A stretch of 58,658 bases of DNA, filler included, from Globobulimina sp. (taxonomy: Eukaryota): assembly GCA_003354225.1 (NCBI GenBank). It is 8 parts of 8 records of this genome, joined end to end, with 100 filler letters (N's around TTAATTAATTAA, not from the genome) between each part and the next. Parts side by side here need not be neighbours in the genome. Positions count along the whole stretch, not along the records: positions 14,713 to 21,964 come from PIVH01000180.1; 7 more parts are not named here. One strand, given 5' to 3'. The translations under genes were made by a program, and so were the position numbers. This document shows, in pieces, positions 7,257 through 51,429 of this stretch. Positions within the stretch are counted from its first letter, which is position 1, and every line of letters begins with the position of its first letter. The notes under the pieces were generated by a model. The model did no database searches. It saw only the letters and a program-made list of their open reading frames with translations, and was not told where the DNA came from.

Positions 7257-7356
7257 NNNNNNNNNNNNNNNNNNNNNNNNNNNNNNNNNNNNNNNNNNNN
7301 TTAATTAATTAANNNNNNNNNNNNNNNNNNNNNNNNNNNNNNNNNNNNNNNNNNNN
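7257..7356. other. Artificial contig linker N44-TTAATTAATTAA-N44 (same linker at 14613-14712, 21965-22064, 29316-29415, 36666-36765, 44000-44099, 51330-51429)
   Basis: Identical 100-nt N-padded spacer with stops in all six frames. The segments between are 7256, 7256, 7252, 7251, 7250, 7234, 7230 and 7229 bp, i.e. size-sorted contigs. Confidence 0.99.
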
Positions 7357-7788: not shown

Positions 7789-10700
7789 ATGGCATACGTC
7801 AGCGTCGCCACTCACGTTTCTCTATTGGTCGACGATGCAACAGAAGCGACATATTCGCCACGATTCAAATTCGTCAGGAATCGAGTGAATATAACCAACA
7901 CCACCCCGATCAACAAATCAATCAACACCAAAGCGAAATTATCGGCGAAGAAATTTAAAGAAATCACCACATTCGCACCGTTCACACCAACAAAGCAGAT
8001 TCTCGTGGATTTACGAGATTTATCATTAGACGAATTGGAACAATATCAAAATACGTATTGGTCGCGGATACAGATAGCATTGGCGTGGAAGAGGAAATAT
8101 CAAAATGCAGACGAAGCTGAAAAGGCAAATCGATCAACAATATGGAAATCAACAACAAAATTAAAATCGAACAAAGTCGCCACTCAAAAACGTATATCAA
8201 ATAATTTTAAGAAAGGATATCAAGCATTATTGGATCGCGCCGACGAATTATTAAAAATTGAACGCGAAGTAAAAGATGAAGACAGTGATGACGATGGCGA
8301 TCAAACGATGGCTCCGGCTCAAACGTCTACGGTGGTACGTATTTTTTATATATATATACAGCAATTTATTATTCAGTTTGAAACTAAAAATGTACACAAA
8401 TCATTTCAGTTTCAAACTGAAAAAGTACGCACCCCATTTCAGTTTGGAACTATGAATTTTATTTTTATAGTTTCAAACGAAATGGGGCGGCGGAGCCGCC
8501 GTTCCATTTCAGTTTGAAACTGAAAATATAGATTCATAGTTTCAAACTGAAATGGTTTGCGTACATTTTTAGTTTGAACTGAAATGATTTGTGTACATTT
8601 TTAGTTTCAAACTGAATAACTCATCATATAATATTTCAAACAGGGATTAAATTTGGATGAATCTGTCGACGATGAGGAAGACGATGAAGACGATGAAGAC
8701 GATGAAGAGTCATACGAGGAAATATCTGATGATGAGGACGTGTCGGAGTCGGGATACCATCCGAAAAATGTTGTAAATGCCTGCATCTACGCAGCACTCA
8801 GTCCAATCACCGCGACAATAACAACAATATTACAACGAGTGAATAAAATATCGCGGCAAAGCAATGTGATTGAAGAAGGTATGAATGTATTTTATTTATA
8901 TATAACACACATATTATATCAATATATAGCAACTGAATCGACGCGGAAAGATATTGAATGTATACTGCATAAACTGGAACCTGTTCGTGGTGGTAAAGTG
9001 CAGCATTATTTTCAAATGGATATAAAGCAAATTTATGAGACATTTACGGCGGAAATATGCGTATTGAATGCGAGGATTAGAAATTTGGTGAAAAAAATGG
9101 CAAATTTGAGGAATACGAAGGAGAAATATCGTGGCAAATATAATAGGTCGACGGGGCGAGTCAAGCAATTTACGAATTTATTAGGAAGCAAATATTTATT
9201 TACGGATATCAAGGCTAAGGTACAAAAGACGCAGCAAAAAAGAAGGGATGAAAGGATTGATAATATATTACAGAGGTTGGGATTTGAAAAGTCGACGGCA
9301 GAATTTATTAAAAGACGATATGAAGAAAAATACTCAAAAGACGAGATGTTTAGAAGTTGGGCAATGGACAAAACCATCGCCGATGTTGTGAAAAAAATAA
9401 ATAAAGGAGTACGGGCGAAAGAGTTATCTGAGAAAGAAGCATTTGTATGGCTGATGGTGCGAACATGCGCAAAGTCGTCCCGCCGCTTAAACGGATTTTA
9501 TCATCAGCAAATATGGGAGAAAAATGTGGACAAAAACGGAAAAGAAAGACGATCAAGAGTTCGCGGCGAGTATGGAGTGCTGTCATCGATCGGTGTATCA
9601 GATTATATGATTACGAAAGTATTGGACAGATTTTATGATGATTGGCCCGAATTAGAACCGCATATTTTTAATGGAATGGTTTTTTATTTTAATATTTTAC
9701 AGCTATTAATGTTATATTTTACAGAATGGGGCGTATCGCGAGAATTGGATAATAATTTCGCATTTCATGAAGACATATTAAAAATACGTTATAAAGATAG
9801 GATCGAGTCGTTACGAGATGGTGAGAGATTGCAATTATCGTTTGGTACATTTAATGGTATGCTATTTATACATTTAACATTTTGATTTATTTATACATTT
9901 GTATATAATTATAGCTTTTGGATATATTGATTCGATGCCGTTAAGTAATGCAGCTTTTGGTAGCGGCACAAATTGGGTAGCTGGTATACCGGATTTATTT
10001 AATTATGGACAAGCAAGTGTTTTACTAAATATATTATATGCGTTTGGCACACATTCGGATAAAGGGAAGTGGGTCAATTCATTCAACGAATTTAATGAAA
10101 CAAATATGGTTTTGGCTGAAAGCGTAGGGATTACGGTATCATGCCGTACAATTCCTGTGGATTATACTGCAGGACTTAAATTTCGGTATCACGGCGATAT
10201 ACCATTAGTCTCCTCGATTACGGAAAGTATGGGCAATCGGCAGGATTATGGAGTGGTTGAATTTACCATAATAATGACAAAGGATGCAACGGTGGCGACT
10301 GATGATGCATGGTGTCATTCATTAACACCAACAAATTGCTATAAAAGTATGTATAAACTGAAAAATATGCATACAAACAAATTTTAGTTTCAGTTTCAAA
10401 CTGAAAAGTGAGACAAACATATTTCATTTTCAGTTTGAAACTATAAAAGTACGCCGTCCCATTTCCGTTTGAAACTAAGAATTGATATTTTAGTTTCAAA
10501 CGGAAATGGAACGGCGGCTTCGCCGCCCCATTTCATTTTGAAACTAAAATATTAAATCATAGTTTCAAACGGAAATGGGGTGGCGTAGTTTTATAGTTTC
10601 AAACTGAAAATGAAATATGTTTGTATCACTTTTCAGTTTGAAACTGAAACTAAAATTTGTTTGTATGCATATTTTCAGTTTGAAACAGAACGTGAAATAA

Positions 10701-12142
10701 TTCCTTGTTTGCTTTTAGAGAATATACAGTTATTATTGCAATTGCCGAGATTTGAAAAATGGGAACAAATGCAATTTGAAGCTCTCCCCAATGTGTTTAA
10801 ATGTACATTGACATTTAAAATACATAATCGTATGAATTATTTAATTGATCAATATATTGAAGAGACTGGCGGTTATGTTGGCGATATTGATTTGAGAAAA
10901 GCAGCTGCGAAACATTTACAAATATGTTTTTATAATCGATGTTTAGAGCGAGCCATATGGCAACATTTTGAATTTTTGCATGCCGGTTGTTCATTATCTG
11001 GGACAATGTTAAGTCATTTTATACATACAAGCCGGAATGTGTTCGGTTTGAGTAAAGAAGATGTACAAATTGGTGTTGGTATGATGGGAAACAACAATAT
11101 TTCTAAACAAGTTAAAACTGGATTGGCAACCATCGCGAAAGAGAAAAGGATCACAATACATTCAAACGGATTAATTTCAAAGTTTATGTGGAGACATTTA
11201 TATTTGGTGGCTATTTATATTATTAGTAAAGTATACTCATTCAAAGACATAATTATTTGCATTGCATGGTTATTAATAATAAAAAATACACAATTTATTG
11301 TATGGCTGGCCTTTGATGGTATTGATTCATCCGCTGATTTAACAGAGACATTACTCCGTAGAGCCGAAGAGTCGCAGTTAATTGTATTTAATTTATATAC
11401 TTTATTTATTTTAGCAAATCCAACACCATACATTTGCCGATTATGTGTGGAGAGCGTCAATCAAATTCGCTTACATTTGGACGATGAATTAAATATTCAT
11501 CAAAAATCACTGACCCAAGCAAGTTCGCAAGCTATTGAAGCGTGTGGCAAATTAATGAAATGTTTTTTTCGTAGAAATATGTGTAAAAGCGATCAAGAAA
11601 AAGGTATTAGACATATATTGAAGTTATGGCATATTCGGAATCTTATGGGTACCAAACATAATATGTTTAAACTTAAAAATTTGCAATATATGGATTCAAG
11701 AGATAAATATTATGATACATTGGATGAGAAAAATTACCATCATACGGAATATAAAGCAAATGCAGATATTATCGATGAAAACGATGAAGAGATAAATATT
11801 GGGCATGTATTCGATGAATTGAATAAAATTAAATCAAACAAAATTCCTCAATCATATCTGGGTTTGTTTGGAGGCTTTGAAGTATATCAAGGAGATGGCA
11901 GTGATGAAGGCGATATATCGGATGATGATGAACAAAAAATGGATGTAGACATTCAAGCAGATACAGAAACACATTCAGATTCAGATTCTGATATTGATGG
12001 CGTACAAATGCGAGATGAACAAGAATTATTGGAACAAGGTAGAATTTCATCGGAAATGAGTATTTCATCGGAAGTGTCAATTCCAATGGACAGTGATGAG
12101 GATTATAGATCAAGCATGGAAAGTGATGTTGAGTCTGATTAA
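7789..12142 (+). CDS. Spliced protein of about 1197 aa, putative Transib/RAG1-like DDE transposase (exons 7789-8334, 8644-8878, 8930-9856, 9915-10346, 10689-12142)
   Basis: Four GT-AG introns join ORFs 7567, 8653, 9899 and 10610 in frame. Candidate motifs: FGYIDSM, FRYHGDIP, FEFLHAG, PTPYICRL and SSQAIEACGKLMKCFFRRN..ILKLW. The gene model is well supported; the family call is tentative. Confidence 0.5.
8369..8619. repeat. Foldback palindrome of about 250 bp inside intron 8335-8643
   Basis: Arms ttattcagtttgaaactaaaaatgtacacaaatcatttcag and ctgaaatgatttgtgtacatttttagtttcaaactgaataa. Centre ggcggcggagccgcc. Built from repeated TTTCAGTTTGAAACT units. Confidence 0.9.
10355..10681. repeat. Foldback palindrome of about 330 bp filling intron 10347-10688, inverted relative of the 8369-8619 element
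   Basis: Arms aaactgaaaaatatgcatacaaacaaattttagtttcag and ctgaaactaaaatttgtttgtatgcatattttcagttt. The centre gaaatggaacggcggcttcgccgcccc is nearly the reverse complement of the first element's centre. Confidence 0.9.
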
Positions 12143-13396: not shown

Positions 13397-14200
13397 TCAA
13401 TTATGCCCATTAAACCAATTATTATCCAAATATCGCATAGGCGGCGGTGTGTCTTCTCTGCGCCGCCGCTGTCTCTGTCGAACTGATGAATAAAATATAT
13501 TATATCTGCGTTTTTTGGGAGGCGGCGGTGATAAACTTCTCGATTGCGATGCAGCGACAACCGGCGTATCATCACTTAAATCAATATCCGCTGCGGATTC
13601 GCTTCCTTCAATTAATTCCGTACTAGATTCGCCGCTGCCAATATCACTTAATTCCGCTGCGGATTCGCTGCCGGATCTGCTTCCGTCACTCGATCCCGTC
13701 GCAGATTCGCCAATTTCACTTAATTCCGCTGTCAATTCCGGATCGGAGCCTGCTTCAAATTGAAATCTACTGCGTTTACGGTGCCTTTTCATCGCGAATG
13801 TTTCGCCGCTGCCATCTTCATCAAATTCATTCTCTTCAAATTCATCCTCTTCAAATTCATCAAATTCGCTTACATCCGAATCATATTTCAATATCGGATT
13901 TTGACTCCAATCCGGTTCGATTGCCAATTGGTGATATGGTACTCCACAATGCATTACAAATCGCCTTCTTCTTCTCTGCGAGTGCGACGGAGACTGTGAT
14001 TGCGACGGAGACTTCGATTGCGACGGAGACTTCGATTGCGACGGAGACTTCGATTGCGACGGTGATGGTGATGGTGCTGGTGCTGGTGCTGGTGATGGAG
14101 ACTGTGTTAGCTCCGATTCACTAAACGGTGCCATAGGTCCGATATATGCTGGTGATGGCCGCCCTCGATACGTACCGAGTAACCCGAGTCGCGGTCCCAT
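13397..14200 (-). CDS. Low-complexity Ser/Pro/acidic protein with NLS-like motifs
   Basis: 267-aa ORF with SPSQSK repeats, SESAAELS repeats and PPPPKKRR. No domain recognised. Confidence 0.5.
   Translation of the reverse strand: MGPRLGLLGTYRGRPSPAYIGPMAPFSESELTQSPSPAPAPAPSPSPSQSKSPSQSKSPSQSKSPSQSQSPSHSQRRRRRFVMHCGVPYHQLAIEPDWSQNPILKYDSDVSEFDEFEEDEFEENEFDEDGSGETFAMKRHRKRSRFQFEAGSDPELTAELSEIGESATGSSDGSRSGSESAAELSDIGSGESSTELIEGSESAADIDLSDDTPVVAASQSRSLSPPPPKKRRYNIFYSSVRQRQRRRREDTPPPMRYLDNNWFNGHN
13983..14062. repeat. 18-bp tandem repeat (tgcgacggagacttcgat, about 4 copies) encoding SPSQSK
   Basis: Seen directly in the sequence. Confidence 0.9.
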
Positions 14201-14712
14201 ATTCGCATTGAAAACTTTCAGATCTAGTTATCCTTGCACAAGATTTCAGAAAGCAGAGATTGAATTAATTTAAATTATAATAAGTAAAAAAATTAAAAAA
14301 AAGTGAAACAATTCAGTCGATGTGTTTTTTTAGTTTAATTAGAATCGTCGCCAAGGGGAAGGTGGAGGTCCCTGTGATCTTTCTCTTTCTAAAAATTCTC
14401 TTTCTTTTTCATCAAATTCCAGATTAATTTCTTTAATCACATCAATTTCCGATTGTGTAGCTGGGGTTACTCCACTCCAATCAACAAATAAGTCAGGTGG
14501 ATCATAAAAACTACCATTTGATGATGGAGCAGGCGATAAATCCATGTAATTTGGTGATGGTACATTGGATTGTTTTGATCGCGACCATGGCGCAGTTTGT
14601 GCTTTTTGGGAANNNNNNNNNNNNNNNNNNNNNNNNNNNNNNNNNNNNNNNNNNNNTTAATTAATTAANNNNNNNNNNNNNNNNNNNNNNNNNNNNNNNN
14701 NNNNNNNNNNNN

Positions 14713-14919
14713 AGCGTTTGGGCCATCAAATCTAAAACGCCCCGCCAATACTCCTAATTGACCATCAGCAGCGCCTGTTAAGCCCGCGCCCCTCAATTGA
14801 TAATCATTAGTGCCATCATAGACCGTGGCAAATGTCTGATAACCTCCCACTAAAGGATCAAACACATCACCCGTAACACGCCTTAAAACTGGCTGTAAGA
14901 CTGGGTTTAAAACCGTCAT
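14713..14919 (-). CDS. Phage protein, N-terminal fragment, possibly a LamG/ConA-like virion protein
   Basis: ATGA overlap at 14916-14919 gives MTVLNPVLQPVLR..YDGTNDYQLRGAGLTGAADG. The DGTNDY motif often opens LamG-like domains. Truncated by the contig end. Confidence 0.45.
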
Positions 14920-15236
14920 TGAACCGCTTCGACTGAAATAGTCCCGGAGGTGTAAGCCGTACACTCAAAACGATAGCGAACGTTCTTACGGGCGTTTGTG
15001 CCGACATTTTCTATAGGGGCGGTTATGGGAGAACCAACCGTGCGCCATACGCCGTCCTGATTGAAATCTCTCTGAAGTTCTACCGTGCCGACAAATGTGC
15101 CGGATATGCTTACGTCAAAATTGCCCTTGTCTGCAAAAGGGAATTGCCCTTGACCGGCAATATCTAATACGCCAGTACCGGTGAAATCTGCTGATATGTT
15201 TAAAGTGTTTTGACCTATGGGTGACTTGATTGCCAT
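14916..15236 (-). CDS. Small beta-rich phage protein, 106 aa
   Basis: AGGAG SD. The pattern ISGTFVGTVELQRDF..W..YRFECTAYTSGTI is one I recognise from phage hypothetical proteins. Confidence 0.75.
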   Translation of the reverse strand: MAIKSPIGQNTLNISADFTGTGVLDIAGQGQFPFADKGNFDVSISGTFVGTVELQRDFNQDGVWRTVGSPITAPIENVGTNARKNVRYRFECTAYTSGTISVEAVQ

Positions 15237-15274
15237 GAATTTCTCCTAGTTTTTTAGGAGTATAACATAAAGTT

Positions 15275-15418
15275 TTACTTTTTCTTTCTCTTTTTTTTGG
15301 CGCGTCCAGCCTTAGAAAGAGCAATGGCAATGGCGGTCTTCTGTGGCTTGCCTTCACTCCTGAGTTTAGAAATATTCTTTGACACAGTTGCTTTCGATCG
15401 TCCTTTTTTGAGTGGCAT
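15275..15418 (-). CDS. Small basic phage protein, 47 aa ([38 protein letters not shown]...)
   Basis: Translated by hand (below the track cutoff). Matches the common phage MPLKKG..QAxAIAL type. Confidence 0.8.
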
Positions 15419-15541
15419 CTATCCACCTATGAATTGTGCGAGTTCTTGAGACATAAAACTACCAGCAGCAGTAACTACCGATCCTGTGATAATACCATAT
15501 AAATACCATCTTATTCTAGCCGAAACATCTTTTCGTTTCAT
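15419..15541 (-). CDS. 40-aa putative membrane peptide (MKRKDVSARIRWYLYGIITGSVVTAAGSFMSQELAQFIGG)
   Basis: GGAG SD upstream. Its stop abuts the ATG of the next gene. Confidence 0.6.
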   Translation of the reverse strand: MKRKDVSARIRWYLYGIITGSVVTAAGSFMSQELAQFIGG

Positions 15542-15555
15542 GTGAAACACTCCGA

Positions 15556-15585
15556 AAAAGGAGGGAGGCTTTTTACACCTCCCCC
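15556..15585 (-). terminator. Intrinsic terminator closing the hfa-like cassette
   Basis: Minus strand GGGGGAGGTGTAAAAAGCCTCCCTCC-TTTTT, starting 12 nt after the stop at 15597. Confidence 0.8.
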
Positions 15586-15596
15586 AAGTTTACCAG

Positions 15597-16226
15597 CTAG
15601 TGCTTAATAACAACCACGTTCACACGGTTTTGAGCCGTTTGAGTGATGTTGTCGGCATGGGCCACTGCTGACACGTTGCCAGCGACCTGCAAGCTAGATG
15701 AGAATTGATGTGTATCAATATCTACTATATTTCCATTAGGATTTTTCATGGTGATATCAATAAGGTTAATATCATTAGCTGCTACCTGCGTAACATCATC
15801 AAGACCATGTGCGATGGAAACGTTACCAGCAATCTGCGCGTTGCTAACACTCTGGCCTACATGAACGTCTTGATCTCCCATATACCAAACACCATCTTTA
15901 TCATTGATAACAACTTCATTGGCGAGGTTATAGGCGGTTTGGTCTACATCATCACCATGCCAAGCCAAGGCAACGTTACCGGCAATCTGATCAGCATAGA
16001 CGCGCTGGTGAGATCGGTAATCATCATTGTAGGCATCAGTGTCTACAGCTTCGTAAGTATTGGCAACGTTAACCGCTGTCTGCTCAACATTATCGATGCT
16101 ACCAGCAGCGCTAAAGTTGACCGCCAATTGATGACCAACAAAGAGTTGGTTGTTTACGTAGTCATCAGCAGAGGCCGGGGATACGAGGGCAAAGATTGCC
16201 AAGAGTCCTAAAAGTGATTTAATCAT
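15597..16226 (-). CDS. Secreted repeat protein, putative functional-amyloid or beta-solenoid subunit (occupies the HfaD position; curlin/FapC-like)
   Basis: Signal peptide ending ASA. Four repeats of about 36 aa with consensus Q-x5-QxAxN-x7-D[DN][VI]xQxAxNxxN. ATGA overlap with the upstream CsgG/HfaB gene. Confidence 0.75.
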   Translation of the reverse strand: MIKSLLGLLAIFALVSPASADDYVNNQLFVGHQLAVNFSAAGSIDNVEQTAVNVANTYEAVDTDAYNDDYRSHQRVYADQIAGNVALAWHGDDVDQTAYNLANEVVINDKDGVWYMGDQDVHVGQSVSNAQIAGNVSIAHGLDDVTQVAANDINLIDITMKNPNGNIVDIDTHQFSSSLQVAGNVSAVAHADNITQTAQNRVNVVVIKH

Positions 16227-17092
16227 GTTATATCTTCCTGTTTTTCTAAATGTGCGTCCTTGATTGTATTGCCCTCAGGACGTTTAGAGGGGAGTAAAAA
16301 GTCGCATGTATCATCGGCGTTTAAAATATCCTTGGCTATTCTCCAGGCCGCTACTTCAGTGATATAGCGTGCCGTCCATTGTGAGGGGGAGTTGGTTTGT
16401 ACCCCGCCATTGAAATCAGTGAGATTGTCACCAAAGAACTTAAAGACGTTTGCCTTGATCTCTGAGCCATAGATACGCTTGGCTATGGTATTGGAGTAAT
16501 ACAGCTTGGTCGATACTGTTTGCCAGACCTGGAAGTCCGCAGCGACAAGCATCTCGTAGTCTCGGAAACCCGCACCAAATCCTGCAACGTCCAATTCAGC
16601 ACCGCCGCTAGATGTATCCCAGTCCAGATTATTAAAAGCACCAGTGATAAATAAATCAGAACCGCGCATAGAGCCCTTTTTAATCGGACGGAACTTAATA
16701 CTCTTGCCATCCACAACGATACTTTTGCCATCTCCTAATATGCCCTGCTTGGCGTATTTAATCTCCCACTCAGTAACGGCTGTTTGGTGACGGTTAACCA
16801 TTGGGATTCCGGTTTTACCGAGCGCAGCCACCAGCATTTCGGTAGCGCTTAGGGGTAGAGGCGCGCCTTCACCGTCCTGAGTGTATCTGTTGGTTTTATC
16901 CGCAATGTTATGGACGCCAACATGAACCTCTGTGGAAAACTTCTGCAAGCATCGGAGGGCGCTTGAGATAGGTGTATCACCTACAGAGGGGAAATCCCTT
17001 GATATATGCTTAACTTCCTCTACAGCAACGCTCTGAGCGCACGCGGAGAGGGTTAAGACTGCGAGTCCTAGCAATAGCTTACGGCGTAACAT
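16223..17092 (-). CDS. hfaB: CsgG/HfaB-family outer-membrane secretion lipoprotein
   Basis: Lipobox LSAC. HfaB-like blocks TPISSALRCL, VGVHNIADKT, EMLVAALGKTG..VNR, EIKYA, GSDLFITGAF, KRIYGSEIKANVFKFFG. GGGGA SD before the ATG at 17092 (track start 17101). Confidence 0.88.
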   Translation of the reverse strand: MLRRKLLLGLAVLTLSACAQSVAVEEVKHISRDFPSVGDTPISSALRCLQKFSTEVHVGVHNIADKTNRYTQDGEGAPLPLSATEMLVAALGKTGIPMVNRHQTAVTEWEIKYAKQGILGDGKSIVVDGKSIKFRPIKKGSMRGSDLFITGAFNNLDWDTSSGGAELDVAGFGAGFRDYEMLVAADFQVWQTVSTKLYYSNTIAKRIYGSEIKANVFKFFGDNLTDFNGGVQTNSPSQWTARYITEVAAWRIAKDILNADDTCDFLLPSKRPEGNTIKDAHLEKQEDIT

Positions 17093-17444
17093 TGTTATCA
17101 TCCCCGCTTACATTCGTTGCGGTTTGATCATCGCCGTTTTGATTGGCGTTAGTGTTTACATATTCGCTTTCACTAACAACAATTTGATTTTGGATGTTTG
17201 TAGAGGCTTGATAAGTGCCTATATCGGCATGATCGATTGAGCCTGTGTAGGAGTTGTAATTGGTGTTGTAGGTCTTAGAGGTGCCTAAGCCGTTTTTTTT
17301 CATCTCTTGCATGTAAAGCTTTTGAAGCCGTACTGATTTAGATATTGGGTCTTCAAATTGCCATGCTCTAGACTCTTTAAAGCCGCCAGCTTGTGCCGTT
17401 CCTGCAACGAATAGAAAGAATACTAATGCTGTTAACATCTTCAT
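17079..17444 (-). CDS. HfaA-like small secreted protein, 121 aa
   Basis: Signal peptide (AQA). N/Q/T-rich C-terminus ASTNIQNQIVVS..VNTNANQNG..QTA resembles that of HfaA. First gene of the cassette; overlaps the hfaB-like gene; GGGAGA SD. Confidence 0.65.
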   Translation of the reverse strand: MKMLTALVFFLFVAGTAQAGGFKESRAWQFEDPISKSVRLQKLYMQEMKKNGLGTSKTYNTNYNSYTGSIDHADIGTYQASTNIQNQIVVSESEYVNTNANQNGDDQTATNVSGDDNNVTP

Positions 17445-17684
17445 AATAAGGTCTCCCTGTTATGTTTTTTAGTTTTTATTAACTAAAACGGTATAACAAA
17501 GGAGAGTGCAAACATATTCTTTTTAGACGTATAGTTGCATTTTTACAATTGTATGTTGTAATTATAACACGATTAATCCTGTAGTCCTTCTATGATCAAC
17601 CACATACTGACACCAAAGGCACACCACACCAGAAGGAACCCACAGAGATTACCTAATGATTTAGATAATTCTAATATTCTCTCT

Positions 17685-17999
17685 CTAGTAAAATGCACGG
17701 GATGTTGTCCTACAAGGGTTGCATTGCCTGTTCCATATGCCTTCGCTCATAAAGGTATTACCGCATACGATACAGCTTCTCTTTTTCTTCACTTTAACGC
17801 CTAAGCCTAGTTTGACCTTTTGTTTGCTGACTTCACTGGCTTTTATTTTCATCATCTTGGCAATTTCTGCCGTTGCATAACCCTCTTCGTGGTAGGATTC
17901 CAGCAGGGCTATTTGTTTATCTCCCCACACAAAGCCTAGTTGATTATCTATTTCTTCATCTAAATCAAAGAAATCTGGCTGCTCATTCTCTAATGGCAT
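17685..17999 (-). CDS. GcrA-like HTH plus C4 zinc-finger regulator
   Basis: WGDKQIALL..EGYATAEIAKMM..V..KLGL resembles the GcrA N-terminal HTH. Followed by RSCIVCG..FMSEGIWNRQCNPC. Confidence 0.65.
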   Translation of the reverse strand: MPLENEQPDFFDLDEEIDNQLGFVWGDKQIALLESYHEEGYATAEIAKMMKIKASEVSKQKVKLGLGVKVKKKRSCIVCGNTFMSEGIWNRQCNPCRTTSRAFY

Positions 18000-18017
18000 T
18001 GTTAGTCCCCCGACTGT

Positions 18018-18227
18018 TTAATCTTTGTTGCGCGGCTCACTTACTTTCAAACTCAGAAATGACTTGCCTGCTCTATCAGTCTTCAGCCATCCGGCTATCT
18101 CGAAGACGTCCCCCTCCTTAGCGTCTACTGGCAGTGTGAATGTTCCCTTTCTATCAGGGTGTGTGTCTTTGCCCTTGTCGTTCATGTGTAGGGCTCCAGA
18201 ACCGGGGTTCCATTTAAAGTTACTCAT
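18018..18227 (-). CDS. DUF736-like putative ssDNA-binding phage protein, 69 aa
   Basis: GALHMNDK..HPDRKG..IAGWLKTDRAGKSFLSLKV. GGAGAG SD before the ATG at 18227. Confidence 0.65.
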   Translation of the reverse strand: MSNFKWNPGSGALHMNDKGKDTHPDRKGTFTLPVDAKEGDVFEIAGWLKTDRAGKSFLSLKVSEPRNKD

Positions 18228-18237
18228 TCTCTCTCTC

Positions 18238-18645
18238 CTATGTTTTAGGCAATATTCTAGGCAAATTCGATGGCGTAAAATTACAAACAAACCAAGGATA
18301 ATAATCATCTAAATTTTCTGTTCCTACCCTCATCCAGATATGACCTGTTTCAACGTCAACCATCTCGATAATATCTGAATCTTCTTGATAATCTCCTTTG
18401 TCTACATGACGACAAACAATGTCCCTTTGAATATAGTCAGGGTCCCAAAAATCGTATGCCGGACCATTACCTACTAAAATAGGGGCTGCTTGACTACTAT
18501 ATCCATCGTTTCTGTCTTCAAATACGAAATAAACTTTGTCATCCATAGCCCAAGCTATTCCTTCAACATCATCTGTAAATGGATGTCTAATATTAATAGC
18601 AACAGCCTCTAGTTTATGTTTTCCTACTAAATCTTTTAGTTCCAT
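18238..18645 (-). CDS. Phage hypothetical protein, 135 aa
   Basis: ORF with AAGGAAG SD, in operon context. Confidence 0.75.
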   Translation of the reverse strand: MELKDLVGKHKLEAVAINIRHPFTDDVEGIAWAMDDKVYFVFEDRNDGYSSQAAPILVGNGPAYDFWDPDYIQRDIVCRHVDKGDYQEDSDIIEMVDVETGHIWMRVGTENLDDYYPWFVCNFTPSNLPRILPKT

Positions 18646-18972
18646 CTTCTCTTCCTTTCTTCCATAGCTAGTGGCTTTTGGGCATCCCAGAGTATGGGAA
18701 GGACTATGTTACACGTCCTAGGGATTAACCCCGCCTACTAAGCTCGCTTCCGGCTCTCGCCTATCTGTCTCTCGTTGCTAAGACAGTGCATTTGGCTATT
18801 TTTTAGGCCAGCCAACAATTTGGGTTAAACATATTGCAACACACCAAACTGCCTTTACCTTGAATCCATAACGGTCTCTGTACATGCCTCTAGTTGCTGC
18901 CAAGCAGAGCTAGAAAATTTTGGTTGTTTTTAACGAGGAAACCATCCTGTACTGGGGGAATTTTGTAAGGAA

Positions 18973-19002
18973 TTGACACTTTGTTTGTAAGTTTGTTACA
19001 AT
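18973..19002 (+). promoter_or_regulatory. Sigma70-type promoter antisense to the phage operon
   Basis: TTGACA (18973-18978), 18-nt spacer, TACAAT (18997-19002) with an extended TG. Confidence 0.75.
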
Positions 19003-19008
19003 GTGTCT

Positions 19009-19090
19009 ACGATCATTCTCAAATTCCCACCAAAGAAATTTAATGATCGTCATGACCTCGGACATTAACGTGTCGCGAGGTCGTTCTTTT
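19009..19090 (+). ncRNA. Candidate antisense small RNA of about 80 nt (two hairpins, U-rich tail)
   Basis: Starts about 7 nt after the -10 box. Stem acgatcatt/aatgatcgt, then terminator-like gacctcg-gaca..tgtc-g-cgaggtc followed by gttctttt. Confidence 0.6.
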
Positions 19091-19093
19091 ACT

Positions 19094-19291
19094 CTAGGGT
19101 TTGTTTATTTTATTGTCAAGTTTCCCGGGGCGCATACCTGATATTAGTCCTATAATAAAATGTGTGGCGAAGGTTGCTAAAACGACAGCGAATGCAAACC
19201 AATAAGATTCTACGATAACAAAATGTGCCATTGTCCCGCCAAAAAGAGTATCTCTTATACTGAATCTAGATTTTATCATAAAATTAATCAT
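19094..19291 (-). CDS. Small membrane protein, 65 aa
   Basis: Hydrophobic segments; AAGGA SD. Confidence 0.6.
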   Translation of the reverse strand: MINFMIKSRFSIRDTLFGGTMAHFVIVESYWFAFAVVLATFATHFIIGLISGMRPGKLDNKINKP

Positions 19292-19309
19292 GTGCTGTTC
19301 CTTTTGCTG

Positions 19310-19480
19310 TCAAGTTTGCATATCATGTTCAATTATTATTCGACCTATCTCATCCATAGTTTTACCGAACAACAACATAGTTCCTTCATTGTTAAAAATC
19401 TCTTTTCTAACGGTATCCCATGAAATCATAACTTTGTTATTATTAATATCTTCAACGATAAGAACTTCATTCTGTTTCAT
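19310..19480 (-). CDS. Phage hypothetical protein, 56 aa
   Basis: ATGA overlap at 19477-19480; translated by hand (MKQNEVLIVED...). Confidence 0.55.
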   Translation of the reverse strand: MKQNEVLIVEDINNNKVMISWDTVRKEIFNNEGTMLLFGKTMDEIGRIIIEHDMQT

Positions 19481-19845
19481 TTCACCATCCTCAACTTTCC
19501 ATCTCGTTCTAGCTTATCCTTAGTCCCCTGCATTTTGTCGTAGTTGTCTGCAAGGCGCTTTCGCTCATCTTCGTCATAGTCTAAAAAACGTGCTTGATGT
19601 AGATACACCTGAAACCCCGGAACGAACTTTAACTCCTCTTCCGGTGTGGTCATACACATGGATTTGATAGCCTCTAAGAGCGCTTCCTCTGTCTCTGTAA
19701 CCTTTCCTAGCTTGATAGGGCTAGAATCCACTCTAGCAACGCATTGGTGGCCTGTGGTGGTTATTTCCTGCCATAGAGCGCGGGAGGAGGCTTTTTTAGA
19801 TCGGTTAGCGTGGTGGGGGTAGGTGGACCAGGCTGTGTTAAACAT
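19477..19845 (-). CDS. Protein resembling the C-terminal domain of phage replication initiators
   Basis: FNTAWSTYP..KK..W and KFVPGFQVYLHQARFLD match the F..FW..YP.K / Y(I)P...WLN..RW.D pattern. No N-terminal HTH. Confidence 0.65.
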   Translation of the reverse strand: MFNTAWSTYPHHANRSKKASSRALWQEITTTGHQCVARVDSSPIKLGKVTETEEALLEAIKSMCMTTPEEELKFVPGFQVYLHQARFLDYDEDERKRLADNYDKMQGTKDKLERDGKLRMVK

Positions 19846-20164
19846 TGCCGGCGCTCCTGGCTTTTAGGGCGGCTATGCAGATGGCTAGGGGTGCACTCAT
19901 TGAAAAACCTTGGTGAAATTCAGCGTATTCTGGTGCGTTATCAACATTAGAAAAAGCTGCCATCCATTGCAAATCTACGTTTTGGCCTAAAGATAATAAC
20001 CAGTCTTCAGACACCAACGTTAAAGCACCATCTATGGATGTTGTGAAAGGTGTTAGTGTTGCCCCCTCTTTTAAATCGAGCGCTCTACAAATATCCACAT
20101 CTAGATTAAAACTACCCTCTGTAGCCTCTTCAAGCTGTGCTATTAGGTCTTCTATATCAGCCAT
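19838..20164 (-). CDS. Phage protein, ABA-sandwich-like
   Basis: LIAQLEEATEGS..LDVDI, FTTSIDGALTLV, APLAICIAALKAR. TAATG overlap with the upstream gene. Confidence 0.6.
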   Translation of the reverse strand: MADIEDLIAQLEEATEGSFNLDVDICRALDLKEGATLTPFTTSIDGALTLVSEDWLLSLGQNVDLQWMAAFSNVDNAPEYAEFHQGFSMSAPLAICIAALKARSAGNV

Positions 20165-20649
20165 TAGTCTCCCCCCGGTGGTGTGGGTAGTGGTTGCCAT
20201 TTATCTGGACCATAACCCTCTATAAATGATTGCCGCCCCTCGCTGTCATACCAAGACCAGACAACACCGTTATATGTAGCCTCATAAACATGATCTCCAT
20301 TAGCTATTATAACAGGCGTGTGGATAGGCGCATAATCTATGTTTTGCCATTGGTCTTTAATAACAAATAGATTACCAGTAGGTCCGGCTTTCAATTGTTC
20401 AACGTCTTCTGGTGTTAGTTTTTCAGGGTCGAAGACAGGGGGTTGTTCTTCAGCTAATTCATCAAGTAATTTTACCCATGTTTCTAATTGACCGTGACTA
20501 GGCCAAAGTCCGCATGGTATAGTCATAATTGCTGTACCGTCATAAGTCTCTAAGCCTTCTTTGTCTCGGTTTTCTTTATTATGCTTCAGCCAGTCCTTCA
20601 TAATTGAAGACATTATTTTCAAGCCTATGTGTTTGTCTGCCATCTTCAT
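20164..20649 (-). CDS. Phage protein with C-terminal DUF551-like domain
   Basis: WQNIDYAP..VII..W..PDKWQPLPTPP. Confidence 0.75.
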   Translation of the reverse strand: MKMADKHIGLKIMSSIMKDWLKHNKENRDKEGLETYDGTAIMTIPCGLWPSHGQLETWVKLLDELAEEQPPVFDPEKLTPEDVEQLKAGPTGNLFVIKDQWQNIDYAPIHTPVIIANGDHVYEATYNGVVWSWYDSEGRQSFIEGYGPDKWQPLPTPPGGD

Positions 20650-20807
20650 CAAACAGGTGCTCCCGTTACTGTGTCGCGTGTGTGTTCCGTCTCAATCTCA
20701 GCTTTTAGCTGCTCGTTCATAATTTGGCGTAGCTTCTTTAGATAATAGCGCTTCATACCGTGGCGGGCTGTGCGGTAGTTATATTGTGCTTGTTCAAGAT
20801 TTTTCAT
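20649..20807 (-). CDS. Phage hypothetical protein, 52 aa
   Basis: Coupled on both sides (ATGA at 20804-20807, TGATG at 20647-20651). Translated by hand. Confidence 0.6.
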   Translation of the reverse strand: MKNLEQAQYNYRTARHGMKRYYLKKLRQIMNEQLKAEIETEHTRDTVTGAPV

Positions 20808-21154
20808 TTCACGATCTCCACAGGAATGCCGGTTAAGGCTTCCACAAGTTTGTATTTAAGCTTCCAAAGTTGGGTAGCTGCTCCACTGCCGATATAACCC
20901 TTTACGTCCTCTAAAACTTTTCGATCATCAGAAGTCATGACGTAGCCAAAATCTATTTTAGTAAATCCGCATTTCTTACCGTTGATAATAAAATCAATAC
21001 GGACTTGGCGCTCTAAATCTTTAATGATGAAAGACTTTTGTAATAGAACTAAATCGCGCCACCTACGTGCCTCTGCTTGGCTATCGAACTTTATACCGTC
21101 AACAATAGTTTTCTTGGCGTTGAATTTATTTTTAGCTGTAAATGCGTGTTTCAT
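20804..21154 (-). CDS. DUF1064-family PD-(D/E)XK endonuclease
   Basis: NKFNAKKTIVDGIKFDSQAEARR, LERQV, IDFGY, EDVKG. Confidence 0.9.
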   Translation of the reverse strand: MKHAFTAKNKFNAKKTIVDGIKFDSQAEARRWRDLVLLQKSFIIKDLERQVRIDFIINGKKCGFTKIDFGYVMTSDDRKVLEDVKGYIGSGAATQLWKLKYKLVEALTGIPVEIVK

Positions 21155-21163
21155 GTTTCCTCT

Positions 21164-21214
21164 AAAAAAATGGGGCTAGAACTATTCAGGAGTGATTGAA
21201 GCATCCTAGCCCCC
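21164..21214 (-). terminator. Intrinsic terminator between the cro region and the DUF1064 gene
   Basis: Minus strand GGGGCTAG..CTAGCCCC-ATTTTTTT. Confidence 0.75.
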
Positions 21215-21317
21215 AAGTTAACAGGGAGGAGTTAAACTATGATGATAAGTGCCAATCCACATATAAAGGCTACTACTATCAAGCGTTGGCGTTCTAATGC
21301 AGTCATGTGCTTATCCT

Positions 21318-21506
21318 TTAATCGTAAAAACTTTTAGGCGGTACGCGCCCCTTCGTTAATTCATCGATCTTTTGTGCAAGGCCCAAACTCGGTTTTCTCG
21401 ATCCTGTTTCAATCCGAGATAATGTGGCCTCTTTTATACCTAGCGTCTTAGCGAGTTCTGCTAAGGTTAGCTTTTTGCGTTTCCGCCATGTTCTTAATGT
21501 TTCCAT
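21318..21506 (-). CDS. Cro-like XRE HTH regulator, 62 aa
   Basis: LRTWRKRKKLTLAELAKTLGIKEATLSRIETGSRKPS. GAGG SD before the ATG at 21506. Confidence 0.9.
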   Translation of the reverse strand: METLRTWRKRKKLTLAELAKTLGIKEATLSRIETGSRKPSLGLAQKIDELTKGRVPPKSFYD

Positions 21507-21513
21507 ACCTCTC

Positions 21514-21600
21514 TTATTACATATAAGGAAAGTAGCGTCAAGAAAAAAACTTTCCAAAAAGGTAAAAACTATTTGACAACACTTTCCAACGTGGTAATAT
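21514..21600. promoter_or_regulatory. Divergent promoters with three operator-like palindromes TTWCC-N5-GGWAA
   Basis: ttacatataaggaaa 21517-21531 (one mismatch), tttccaaaaaggtaa 21551-21565, tttccaacgtggtaa 21583-21597. TTGACG on minus (21541-21536) and TTGACA on plus (21573-21578). Confidence 0.75.
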
Positions 21601-21631
21601 GTAATCATAAACAAACGCATGGAGAGTTAAA

Positions 21632-21811
21632 ATGATTACCATCAAAGTTAACGAAACAAACGTAGACGTAATTAAATCTGACGAGGTTCTTTATACCTTT
21701 TGTGCTTATCGTCAGTCAGAGAACATTTCGGCGGCGTACGGCATAACAGAGGAATTGTTTCCATACGAAGAAGTTAATCTTGATGAAAGTGGGTTGTCTC
21801 ATGTTGCATAG
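21632..21811 (+). CDS. Phage hypothetical protein, 59 aa, divergent from cro
   Basis: GGAGAG SD; MITIKVNETNVDVIKSD..; no HTH. Confidence 0.65.
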   Translation: MITIKVNETNVDVIKSDEVLYTFCAYRQSENISAAYGITEELFPYEEVNLDESGLSHVA

Positions 21812-22064
21812 CGCTATCACATTTGTCTTAGACAAGAAAAACCTTGGGAAGATGTCTTCATATATGAAGCGCCAGGAATCAGACAGTCGTTATTTTGAAC
21901 AAATGCGGGCTCATGTTGATGAGGGTGGAAAGATAACGGAAAGCCAGAGAATTCAGCTAAAGCANNNNNNNNNNNNNNNNNNNNNNNNNNNNNNNNNNNN
22001 NNNNNNNNTTAATTAATTAANNNNNNNNNNNNNNNNNNNNNNNNNNNNNNNNNNNNNNNNNNNN

Positions 22065-23167: not shown

Positions 23168-25444
23168 ATGTACTCAAGAAGTCTTGCTTGTTTATGTCGC
23201 CGTCAATGTTGCAAACACCAACCACCAACAACCAATTACATTTATGATAATCATTATTCATATTTATTGTACACCAATCACCATCATTACATTTCTCACG
23301 CAACATCAAATAAACATAACCGTCATAATCAACTTAACCTAACATTTCCAATCCGATGCTTTGCTACCAAACAAACGGAGAACACAACCACAACCACAGA
23401 GCATGACGATAGCTACCTGGACCTCGACGAAGAACAACAACCCGAACAAGAACAAGAAAGCAGTAAATCACGCAAATGGAAATCATCCCAAACTAAACGT
23501 GGCCAAAGAATGGATAAAATTGATAGTCCCTCCACCTCCGAACCAGCTATAAAACCATCAAAATGGAGCTCCATTAAGTCCGTAATAAACAAACCATTCG
23601 CCGCTATAAAAGCAAAAACATCGCGTAAAAAAAAAACGGATGATTCCGAGTCAGAAACAAAAACAAAAACAATCAAGAAAGAAAAATTAGTACACAGACC
23701 GGGCAAGAAATCATTACCTTCGCCGGGTGAGGGTATCATGACATTTATACCCAAGCACAAAGCACAAATATTGCATATATTACAGGAAGAATGCAACATT
23801 TTCCCTGACGAAGTATTTCCGTTATTCCCTGATCATAAAACTGAGGAAATCCTCGCTGGTATTTTTTATATACGTTTCCTTTGAAATTTATAGAATTTTC
23901 TCATGTCCACAGATGCCGAGGATTGGACCGGTGAAAGCATCAAATTTGTGGATGATGAGCAAACCAAAAAATTAATAACAGCACAGGATGATACCTCCGA
24001 AGAAGAAGACTCTGAATCTGATGAAGACGAACAGCGATATATTGATCCAGACCAACATGGTAAAAAAAAACAATTATTACTACAACAAACAGAGAAATCG
24101 AAGAGTGATTCATTAATTATACCTAAAAAAACGCCGTTAAGTCAGCTAAAAGCGGAGAAACGCATAGAAACACTGAGCATAGCGGAGTTAATGAGTGATA
24201 AACCAAAGACCACTGCGTCGAAATTGCGCGACCATAAAGTCTCCGGTATCGATGTAGACGACGAACGGAGTAAATTTCGGGAAATGTCTGTGATGAATCC
24301 ATATAAATATAGGCGGATTATGACACCTCAGCAAGTGAAGCAATTATATGCGGATGAAATAGGAGATAAAAAGGGTGAGGATGAGGATGTATTGGATGTG
24401 GATGGTGCTGATATATGGGCGCAAGACGCAGATAATGTGTATGAAATCGTTCAGTTATTACGGGAGTTGGGATTCAAAACCAATCAGAATAGCGCAGTGT
24501 GGCCATATACAGAGTTTATGAAGTCTGAAATGGAGATGTCTGGGGATGTGGATACGGGGAAAGAAGGGGATGGCGGAAGTGGCGAAACTGCAGTGGTGTT
24601 GCATGAGGGGAGCGGATTGAATCCGATTGCTGACACATTTAATGATTTTTATTTATTATTTGCACGATTTCCAGAGATATTATCGATGGAATTGAACGAT
24701 ATTCGACGGAAGTTACATGTTTTAGAACAGTTTCAAATCGATGATATTCGGATATTGTTATTGAAAGATCCGCGGATTTTAAGGCGGCCATCACATCACA
24801 TTCGGTGGTTATTGGAGGTGTTTGATGATTATTTTATTGACGATTTTACGCAAATTATTGAATTATCGCCACATTTTTTAGCCTCTACATCGAAGAAAGA
24901 AATGGTGAAAAGGCTATGTTTTATTCATAAAGAGATATTGCAACCATATCAAGAGTATAATAATGAGATTGATAAGGACTCAGTGTATAGGAATATGCAA
25001 ATTGAGTTGAAACATTTGCATAAAAATTCGGAATTTATTATAAAACATGGTGTTGCTATACAGAAAGATAAGAATTTGGAGAATGATATGATAAATGGGG
25101 TGTATTTGGATGATTTGGATAAGGAGAATTTATCGAATTTTATTATAAAACATGTGGATTTCATTGGTAATGCGAATGTAAATAGAATGTGTGAAATAAA
25201 AGGGTTGTTAAAGAAATTAGGGATAAAAAATAAAAAATTAAATGATTTGTTGTATGAATATCCGCAGATTTTAACCATTTCACCACAGGCATTGCATGAA
25301 TGTGTGCATCAAATTAAAATAAATGGTATTCGGGATTACAGACAATATTTTATTGATAATATTCATGATGTTTTGACGTATTGTTCACCGATTGACAGTG
25401 TTGTAACTACTCATCATCAGCAGCTTGAGACACTGCAGCAATAA
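23168..25444 (+). CDS. mTERF-repeat protein with putative mitochondrial presequence (intron 23859-23912)
   Basis: Repeats FARFPEILSM, LLKDPRILRR, IELSPHFLAS, LYEYPQILTI. Arg-rich N-terminus ending RCFAT. In-frame 54-nt GT-AG intron. Confidence 0.8.
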
Positions 25445-25511
25445 CACCGTTTAATTCAATTCGTCCATGCATGTTTTTGGTTAACTTTTGTACTTCAGTT
25501 TTCTTGATTTA

Positions 25512-29315: not shown

Positions 29316-29415
29316 NNNNNNNNNNNNNNNNNNNNNNNNNNNNNNNNNNNNNNNNNNNNTTAATTAATTAANNNNNNNNNNNNNNNNNNNNNNNNNNNNN
29401 NNNNNNNNNNNNNNN

Positions 29416-36665: not shown

Positions 36666-37079
36666 NNNNNNNNNNNNNNNNNNNNNNNNNNNNNNNNNNN
36701 NNNNNNNNNTTAATTAATTAANNNNNNNNNNNNNNNNNNNNNNNNNNNNNNNNNNNNNNNNNNNNTTGTTTAATTTTTTTATATATTTTCATCATTTTCT
36801 GTGTTTTGTTTTTAAGAAAATTTTTATCTGTTTCCACCTCTATATCTTTTCTATATTATTCATGTGTGTTTTCTTTTATTTTGCCACAACGTTTTCTGAT
36901 TGCAGTGCTATCTATTTATACAGCTGAAAACACATAACATGTAAATCCGAGCAAGTTACACAGTCTCATAGAAAAACTACGGTGAGACTGTCAAAATTAG
37001 ATGAATGGCAGTATGCACTCTCTATTACAAATCCCTGAGTTGTAGAGTTGCGGCACTATTTATATTTTAAATTCTAAGG

Positions 37080-51329: not shown

Positions 51330-51429
51330 NNNNNNNNNNNNNNNNNNNNNNNNNNNNNNNNNNNNNNNNNNNNTTAATTAATTAANNNNNNNNNNNNNNN
51401 NNNNNNNNNNNNNNNNNNNNNNNNNNNNN

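Follow-up and report, generated by a model that had tools for sequence, protein, structure and literature searches.

To our knowledge, curli and Fap are the only bacterial amyloids whose architectures are known at high resolution, and the anchor proteins of the Hfa system have been termed amyloid-like on biochemical grounds alone. Here we describe a gene from the Globobulimina sp. assembly GCA_003354225.1, located in a stretch of 58,658 bases (the window), that encodes a secreted protein of 209 amino acids (aa) built from four repeats with ladders of glutamine and asparagine (Q/N). It is the last gene of a three-gene cassette that also encodes a lipoprotein of the CsgG/HfaB family. Our preferred reading, to which we assign a probability of roughly 0.6, is that the protein is a divergent subunit in the HfaD slot, a secreted beta-solenoid encoded by the last gene of a three-gene Hfa-like cassette of a phage or prophage.

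In Caulobacter crescentus, HfaB is needed for the surface localization of HfaA and of the holdfast anchor HfaD, the multimers of HfaA and HfaD resist sodium dodecyl sulfate (SDS) and heat and depend on HfaB, and multimerization of HfaA depends on HfaD, as described in two reports (PMC6707917; bioRxiv 10.1101/2022.07.20.500906). The former also describes a limited similarity of HfaD to S-layer proteins and adhesins. For curlin, PMC10192328 gives a two-strand beta-arch formed by each repeat of ~22–23 aa (kernel N-$-Psi-$-Psi-$-Q, spacing Q-x10-Q) and a repeat number that varies across CsgA homologs. For Pseudomonas FapC (PDB 9u4u and 9nqd), PMC12822426 gives a few long imperfect repeats that each form one multi-strand layer, variable spacers and conserved Asn/Gln residues, in a fapABCDEF operon with the barrel exporter FapF.

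Judged by its predicted physics, the four-repeat protein comes closest to the subunits of curli or Fap; its genetics resemble those of HfaD, and it falls outside the sequence definitions of all three families. It shares the operon slot of HfaD, third of three genes and directly 3' of an HfaB-type gene, and it has in common with HfaD-type proteins a period of ~45–51 aa, repeats that begin straight after the signal peptide and an uncapped end on the last repeat. Unlike HfaD-type repeats, which have hydrophobic or small core residues (A-V-G-N), it carries Gln and Asn at those positions. It contains four repeats, whereas the HfaD-family protein P0019 contains nine in 436 aa, and, in contrast to the Caulobacter HfaD system, it lies on a phage-like contig with no holdfast synthesis genes in view. 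The repeats, predicted layers, spacers and conserved Asn/Gln residues resemble those of FapC, but its partner is a CsgG/HfaB lipoprotein rather than FapF; scans with Pfam, NCBIfam and PHROG models found no Fap family on the contig, and no sequence relation to FapC was found. With curlin (PMC10192328) it shares a predicted design as a secreted, uncapped beta-solenoid with inward Gln/Asn ladders, a predicted docking of the last repeat on the first and an adjacent export gene of the CsgG superfamily, but it has a unit of 47–51 aa with three predicted strands and the kernel Q-x-A-x-N, and it lacks an N22-like targeting segment. The curlin model (Pfam Curlin_rpt) does not match it at E ≤ 1, and none of the 17 other open reading frames (ORFs) scanned on the contig matches the accessory families csgB, csgE or csgF. 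The predicted layer, three-stranded and double a curlin repeat in length, comes nearer to that of FapC.

Repeats, ladder and predicted fold

We compared the protein with itself by ungapped BLOSUM62 scoring in a 31-aa window, using 100 shuffles of the mature sequence as the control. Repeats start at about residues 26, 73, 124 and 173, which corresponds to periods of 47, 51 and 49 residues. Pairs of repeats score 52–72 with 13–16 identities out of 31, compared with a best shuffle score of 24.4 on average (sd 4.9, maximum 51). The sequence-only reading had proposed four gap-free repeats in this ORF, which lies on the minus strand, with linkers of differing length and a unit longer than that of curlin, and all of this is borne out by the aligned units. 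The residues that it called invariant are identical in 4/4 aligned repeats: Q, Q-x-A-x-N, a D that precedes the next Q by four residues, and Q-x-A-x-N-x-x-N. Units of a repeat hidden Markov model (HMM) made from the family tile the mature protein, so that it consists of repeats from the first to the last residue, without a separate N- or C-terminal domain. The last unit (168–209) reaches the C-terminus, six residues past the last ladder Asn, consistent with the proposed uncapped end.

Residues 1–20 look like a Sec signal peptide. A20, D21 and Y23 are invariant in eight homologs, and residues 1–18 have a predicted local distance difference test score (pLDDT) below 50 in the AlphaFold2 (AF2) model. 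The ORF is a genuine gene, as indicated by its conserved relatives, the ATGA overlap with the preceding gene and a terminator-like hairpin downstream.

The protein has no match among the models of Pfam, NCBIfam and PHROG, and a sequence profile search of the PDB returned nothing below E 0.67. We searched 1.84 billion cluster representatives exhaustively with phmmer and obtained six matches at E ≤ 0.001, one of them (P0009) spurious, and a profile search of a set of 5.8 billion proteins gave nine matches among 5782 candidates. P0009 was discarded: it is 1346 aa long and made of Ig-like repeats of 100 aa, and its match is confined to query residues 147–192. The cluster and profile matches (12, all metagenomic) and a Loktanella plasmid protein make up 13 relatives. 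Seven are 198–222 aa long with four repeats; the remainder are 268–428 aa long with five to nine repeat-HMM matches each. The four closest relatives of the same length are 36–41% identical across the full length. The description of the protein as much shorter than HfaD overlooks the range of 4 to ~9 repeats in the family. The word-indexed homolog search with the single protein scored 0/460 candidates, and tblastn against 50,697 phage records found no match. A scan of 185,579 representative genomes found no true relative, which is weak evidence of absence because the scan uses just two short peptide patterns. Its sole locus (L003 4688-4837, in a Chromatiales metagenome-assembled genome) was rejected as a false positive, since the match sits in an alternative frame over a long opposite-strand ORF on a high-G+C contig.

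The ladder was counted over 32 repeat units from eight four-repeat proteins, the target and the seven relatives. The consensus is Q-x5-Q-x-A-x-N-x11-Q-x-A-x-N-x-G-N-x3-I. In order, the ladder residues are conserved as Q 32/32, Q 30/32, A 28/32, N 32/32, Q 32/32, A 32/32 and N 32/32, followed by G 24/32, N 27/32 and I 27/32, and they are as conserved in terminal repeats as in internal ones. The eight proteins have an overall identity of merely 33–41%, which argues for strong selection on the ladder; 41 columns of their alignment are invariant. Mature proteins of the family contain zero Cys and ~19% Q+N and are acidic, with an isoelectric point (pI) of 4.2 for the target. The spacers between repeats carry invariant acidic residues at D62, D64 and D68 and in I107-x-D109-x-x-G112 (residues 60–70 and 107–112). 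These conserved D-x-D and D-x-D-G spacers resemble Ca2+-binding turns and could bind Ca2+.

An AF2 monomer prediction on an eight-sequence alignment was all beta, with a pLDDT of 86.8 and a predicted template modeling score (pTM) of 0.78. Each repeat contains three predicted strands, a short one of 8–9 residues and then two longer ones parted by a two-residue turn. In the two-copy model described below, contacts such as 203–27 and 196–37 join ladder residues of different strands, which indicates that the ladder faces inward and forms the predicted core. This agrees with the beta-solenoid-type fold with an inward Q/N ladder that had been proposed from sequence. As a curlin-like hallmark the ladder fares less well: it is predicted to point inward, but its kernel is not that of curlin. 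The best Foldseek match in the PDB was the FapC amyloid 9u4u_A (E 4.6e-4, TMq 0.12, TMt 0.15).

We then predicted two copies of the protein with ESMFold2, leaving the alignment unused and including three controls. The interaction prediction score from aligned errors (ipSAE) was 0.69, 0.71 and 0.71, compared with 0.00 for the best control, with a partner pLDDT of 86 and at least 95% of contacts common to the runs. In calibration of the method, the pass mark was reached by 21/30 proteins solved as same-chain pairs and by 0/23 solved as single chains. The predicted interface places residues 167–209 (repeat 4) of one copy on residues 21–64 (repeat 1) of the other. It includes the pairs 174–27, 196–49 and 203–56, which carry the intramolecular ladder register over the subunit boundary. 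At the level of prediction, the two-copy model supports head-to-tail polymerization, as had been suggested from the capless end.

The cassette and its counterparts

The three minus-strand genes are translationally coupled by overlapping start and stop codons. The product of gene 2 is the presumed export channel. It matches the Pfam CsgG model (E 3.9e-9, 36.6 bits against a cut-off of 20.8) and has a lipobox, and it also matches phrog_20175, a PHROG of unknown function (E 2.7e-25). The NCBIfam HfaB model scores 110 bits (E 9.1e-32) and the NCBIfam CsgG model 26.6 bits. Because its HfaB score falls short of the 300 bits set for an equivalog, we describe the protein as HfaB-like and not as an HfaB equivalog. 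The sequence-only reading had suggested a check for linkage to CsgG genes; by NCBIfam score, the neighbor fits HfaB far better.

Gene 1 encodes a small secreted protein that has, in order, a signal peptide, the motif E-x-x-x-W-Q-F, the stretch M-Q-E-M-K-K-N-G and an N/Q/T-rich tail with one Q-T-A-T-N pentad. It has no Pfam or NCBIfam match at E ≤ 1 and no PHROG match, in libraries whose inclusion of an HfaA model is unconfirmed. Its N-terminal W-x-F motif aligns with small proteins encoded 5' of HfaB genes in Loktanella and the phages CcrColossus, Bambus and Kabachok, and by eye also with a small protein of Variovorax, which brings the total to five other loci. In a single comparison with the CcrColossus small protein, BLASTP gave E 0.007. 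The HfaA (PF27294) cluster appears among its Atlas leads at 0.83 (rank 15), below the Atlas reliability line. More generally, the small proteins by HfaB-like genes show E-x-x-x-W-x-F-x-T/S after the signal peptide, a basic K-x-G-Y stretch and a tail rich in N/Q/S/T/G, and no family model in the libraries searched recognizes them. Residues 105–113 of the gene 1 protein, D-D-Q-T-A-T-N-V, mimic the subunit kernel Q-x-A-x-N, and this stretch might dock on the end of a fibre. As a ladder repeat the pentad was rejected, since its match to the repeat HMM (E 0.32) falls short of significance.

A counterpart with a member of the Q/N family was found on plasmid NZ_CP072995.1 of Loktanella salsilacus (locus L006 5953-10164), with a near-identical match on NZ_CP072993.1. 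The family member is 428 aa long (repeat HMM E 1.2e-26, nine domain matches) and lies 1.7 kb from a small HfaA-like gene (127 aa, W-x-F), a CsgG/HfaB gene and a 156-aa gene. The Loktanella CsgG/HfaB protein is 36.8% identical to the gene 2 protein over 269 aa. Beside the 428-aa member is a divergent 367-aa paralog with the kernel Q-x-G-x-N-x-x-N, and Wza/Wzc-type polysaccharide export genes, glycosyltransferase genes and a LuxR regulator adjoin the locus. Conceivably, this roseobacter locus encodes a holdfast-like adhesin. The linkage to CsgG genes that the sequence-only reading wanted mapped was borne out in 2/2 contexts inspected, the window and Loktanella, each with an adjacent CsgG/HfaB gene.

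Searching phage records by tblastn with the HfaB-like protein gave nine records, equal to seven distinct jumbo phages of Caulobacter and Brevundimonas, at 25–29% identity. Four of the seven were opened, and 4/4 encode a small secreted protein, an HfaB-like protein and then a repeat protein of 309–355 aa. These cassettes (CcrColossus gp241-243, CcrPW gp250-252, Bambus and Kabachok) are like that of the window in being phage-borne, in gene order and in their W-x-F small proteins. They differ in their third proteins, which are HfaD-type and fall outside the Q/N repeat HMM (E about 5). The repeats of these proteins are 45–50 aa long, of the type Q-x-N-x-G-x-Q...A-x-G-N, and two scores with the NCBIfam HfaD model (24.5 and 31.3 bits) are below its cut-off. 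Most of the jumbo-phage cassette genes are annotated as hypothetical, and one HfaB-like gene as 'transcription activator hfaB'. A literature search found no paper pairing CcrColossus with CsgG; no study of phage-encoded HfaB was among the matches listed, judged by title or abstract start, and a search on HfaB in Rhodobacterales found nothing related.

Plasmids of Variovorax, Brucella pseudintermedia and Vibrio alginolyticus carry small-protein/HfaB cassettes followed by other kinds of repeat protein. The repeat HMMs gave no significant match to their post-HfaB genes, indicating that these cassettes carry other substrate types. On the Vibrio plasmid (NZ_CP082309.1, L009 3384-5316), the CsgG/HfaB gene lies straight after parAB and is followed by genes for a 222-aa secreted protein with four A-T-A-V-G-N-N repeats, HfaD-like by eye, and for a small protein of 131 aa. 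This locus looks like a further compact, plasmid-borne version of the cassette. Taken together, these loci suggest that the HfaA-like and HfaB-like proteins form a conserved core for export and anchoring whose repeat-protein substrate can be exchanged; the Q/N-ladder family is one such substrate.

We compared the repeats of the Q/N family with HfaD-type repeats by profile alignment. With hhalign, the two repeat profiles align at P 4.8e-4 with 41 of ~47 columns in register, matching Q-x5-Q-x-A at the start of the unit and A-x-x-G-N at its end. The score of 19.1 was reached by 0/100 column shuffles (mean 7.7, sd 1.6, maximum 13.4), and the reversed profile scored 9.0. The Atlas HfaD cluster for the target, at 0.83, is below the Atlas reliability line and is a lead only. 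P0019 carries the HfaD Pfam domain (PF27277) and nine units by the jumbo-phage repeat HMM, and it scores 15 bits with NCBIfam HfaD; its AF2 model, made for comparison of strand layout, was unusable (pLDDT 39.8). We regard a distant common ancestry with HfaD-type repeats as more probable than not. The proposal of a new family stands in that the protein is without a Pfam, NCBIfam, PHROG or PDB sequence match, but the family is not free-standing, as it sits in the hfaD slot of a Hfa-type cassette.

Proposed assembly and competing explanations

The following model would account for the cassette. The four-repeat protein would be exported by Sec, with its signal peptide cut after residue 20, and would pass the outer membrane through the HfaB/CsgG-like channel encoded just upstream, as gene linkage and the published work on HfaB and CsgG suggest. 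Outside the cell, it is predicted to fold into four stacked layers of 47–51 aa with three strands each, the core of each layer zipped by Gln/Ala/Asn ladders (Q-x5-Q-x-A-x-N...Q-x-A-x-N-x-G-N). Because the subunit has an uncapped repeat face at either end, its repeat 4 could stack in register on repeat 1 of the next subunit and build an amyloid-like fibre or multimer. The HfaA-like protein would probably co-assemble or nucleate, giving an SDS-resistant surface structure by analogy to Hfa and curli. The least certain step is the role. We speculate that a fibre or anchor on the surface would serve adhesion or tether polysaccharide, as a phage conversion ('moron') trait. Given the phage-type genes on the rest of the contig, the cassette does resemble a self-contained moron carried by a piece of phage or prophage DNA. 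On the predicted structure, a functional amyloid is plausible. Most likely, the protein is a very divergent relative or a replacement of HfaD-type repeat proteins, and we rate it as an uncatalogued class of substrate of Hfa-type systems, unusually small and regular and on a mobile element.

Several observations weigh against this reading. The NCBIfam HfaD model (NF037936, cut-off 100 bits) matches neither the target nor any of ten relatives at E ≤ 1 (P0005-8, P0010, P0015, P0016, Loktanella RS17385 and RS17380, and the Vibrio protein), and the Q/N repeat HMM has no significant match among HfaD-like proteins (E about 5). The probability of the repeat-profile alignment is merely 32%, and that of a full-length hhalign against the phage HfaD-like proteins is 11%, mostly from the signal peptide. 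Linkage to HfaB outside the window comes from one genome, Loktanella, the HfaA-like label of gene 1 from a short motif and a sub-threshold Atlas lead, and there are no holdfast polysaccharide or synthesis genes among the genes of the 7.25-kb contig. With regard to structure, the other leading Foldseek matches in the PDB were acyltransferase and ice-binding solenoids and CsgA, every one with a template modeling score (TM-score) of 0.15 or lower, and BFVD gave no match with a TM-score above 0.34. Such low TM-scores imply that the local geometry is solenoid-like and that a global structural relative is lacking. Both AF2 and ESMFold2 are prone to building solenoids from repeats, and the dimer result may reflect memorized structures of curli and Fap fibrils, a caution that the prediction method itself carries.

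The absence of an HfaD match, together with a Q-x-A-x-N kernel unlike the hydrophobic A-V-G-N core of HfaD-type repeats, would also be expected if the protein were an independent curli-like matrix amyloid with no kinship to HfaD, using a CsgG-type channel and forming long free biofilm fibres rather than a cell-bound anchor. FapC as the top PDB match in Foldseek and the predicted head-to-tail stacking fit such an amyloid, as does the span of 4 to ~9 repeats across the family, variable as in CsgA homologs (PMC10192328). In essence, this is the view of the sequence-only reading. We nevertheless consider it unlikely, since the neighbor is of HfaB type (110 against 27 bits for CsgG) and is preceded by a HfaA-like small gene, the Pfam, NCBIfam and PHROG scans found no csgB-, csgE-, csgF-like or fap genes in the cassette, the in-register likeness to HfaD-type repeats exceeds 100/100 shuffles, and the Loktanella relative lies beside polysaccharide export genes. 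The same exporter might instead deliver a surface beta-solenoid that does not polymerize, acting as a monomeric or small-oligomeric adhesin or S-layer-like protein that binds polysaccharide or surfaces and is possibly stabilized by Ca2+. The confident, compact monomer model, the pI and conserved acidic spacers, the S-layer family annotation of the Variovorax gene after the HfaB-like gene, the top Atlas cluster of the target, auto-named 'Adhesin' (0.88, a lead only), and the limited S-layer and adhesin similarity of HfaD (PMC6707917) would fit. We think this quite improbable: both ends are bare repeat faces without a cap, the homodimer prediction passes with stacking in register, and the ladder of the terminal repeats is conserved like that of the internal ones.

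A function that serves the phage itself, as a receptor-masking coat (superinfection exclusion) or as a virion or lysis-associated component, is brought to mind by the position of the cassette among phage-type genes on the contig and by the retention of related cassettes in lytic jumbo phages of Caulobacter and Brevundimonas, phages that attach at the cell pole. We judge it highly improbable. The Sec signal peptide and lipoprotein channel point to the host envelope and not to the virion, no PHROG structural category was matched, and a further member of the family sits next to polysaccharide export genes on a megaplasmid of a bacterium. This explanation concerns biological purpose and is compatible with the same molecular mechanism. 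One could further imagine a temperate phage with a complete, portable three-gene amyloid machine, made up of an HfaA-like nucleator or adaptor, a CsgG/HfaB-type channel and a Q/N-ladder subunit. With layers of 47–51 aa, three strands and a Q-x-A-x-N kernel, the subunit would be a third structural class of CsgG-dependent functional amyloid, apart from curlin and HfaD, and lysogenic conversion would equip the host for fibre-mediated adhesion or for anchoring polysaccharide. We offer this version tentatively and find it doubtful as a whole.

The four-repeat protein should be unusually convenient for studying how HfaB-type channels and their substrates work, because it is small and confidently modeled, has a near-perfect Gln/Ala/Asn ladder and has the presumed exporter gene adjacent. 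It also bears on the extent of diversification among CsgG-dependent amyloids. A cassette that truly moves on phages would show that bacteria can gain a surface-fibre or anchor system as one mobile module. Short, regular subunits of this solenoid kind are in addition attractive components for engineered living materials.

Feature coordinates and genomic context

Table 1 Positions of the cassette, its repeats and related loci (window positions unless a locus is named)
Feature	Positions	Strand	Details
Gene 3, secreted four-repeat Q/N-ladder protein, 209 aa	15597..16226	minus	ORF; ATG overlaps gene 2 stop (ATGA)
Putative signal peptide, residues 1-20	16167..16226	minus	A-S-A end before D-D-Y; read from sequence
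Repeat 1, residues 21-67	16026..16166	minus	repeat HMM domain 21-67, i-Evalue 2.4e-17; strands 22-29, 33-62
Repeat 2 and spacer, residues 68-118	15873..16025	minus	HMM domain 68-115, i-Evalue 2.9e-22; strands 69-76, 80-109
Repeat 3 and spacer, residues 119-167	15726..15872	minus	HMM domain 119-166, i-Evalue 5.8e-17; strands 119-127, 131-141, 144-160
Repeat 4, residues 168-209	15600..15725	minus	HMM domain 168-209, i-Evalue 2.3e-15; strands 168-176, 180-190, 193-208
Gene 2, CsgG/HfaB-family outer-membrane lipoprotein, 292 aa	16223..17101	minus	lipobox L-S-A-C; start overlaps gene 1 end
Gene 1, secreted Q/N-rich small protein, 121 aa, HfaA-like partner	17079..17444	minus	ORF
AT-rich intergenic region, 240 nt, 5' of cassette	17445..17684	minus	read from sequence
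Extended -10 element, TGtTATAAT, perfect	17569-17561	minus	~117 nt before first ATG; read from sequence
Intrinsic-terminator-like hairpin	15551..15585	minus	9-bp stem, 6 G-C pairs, 7-nt loop, T-rich tail; 11 nt past stop
Spacers between contigs	7257-7356, 14613-14712, 21965-22064, 29316-29415, 36666-36765, 44000-44099, 51330-51429		
Jumbo-phage cassettes (CcrColossus, CcrPW, Bambus, Kabachok)	L001 2380-4744; L002 2362-4880; L004 1880-4245; L005 1866-4471		
W-x-F small-protein loci	window 17079-17444; L006 9781-10164; L007 2876-3337; L001 2380-2871; L002 2362-2859		

The AT-rich region in front of gene 1 contains, besides the extended -10 element, a GGGAG ribosome-binding site. A consensus promoter scan called no minus-strand promoter in this region, and it missed the extended -10 because the scan demands a -35 hexamer. 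The element probably acts as the promoter of the cassette, and the hairpin after gene 3 would work as its terminator.

The window consists of eight contigs of ~7.25 kb each, with seven N44-TTAATTAATTAA-N44 spacers (a six-frame stop linker) between them. Since the contigs were joined artificially and neighbors are not physically linked, the usable genomic context of the four-repeat gene is 14713–21964 alone. This contig has a G+C content of ~42% and looks bacterial or phage-like from its genes. In Pfam and PHROG scans it contains an HTH_3 repressor-like gene, an SSB-like gene, a DUF1064/Holliday-junction resolvase gene (phrog_190, E 2.5e-23) and other PHROG matches. Comparison of the contig DNA with phages gave a single 64-nt match, between the resolvase gene and Listeria phages, which is uninformative on the host. 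Downstream of the terminator, 14713–15550 holds a 43-aa ORF, a 106-aa ORF and an ORF fragment at the contig end, all without a Pfam or PHROG match.

The proteins of other contigs (23903–25444 and 25488–26705; also 10610–12142 and 13397–14200) include one with an mTERF domain and one of 405 aa whose C-terminal part has a core-histone fold (Pfam Histone, E 5e-21). Because of these two proteins, the assembly overall looks eukaryotic or giant-virus-like, and the phage-like contig is probably a passenger, of bacterial or phage origin, within a eukaryote-associated assembly. Long ORFs bearing acidic or Ser/Pro-rich low-complexity runs also occur on the other contigs.

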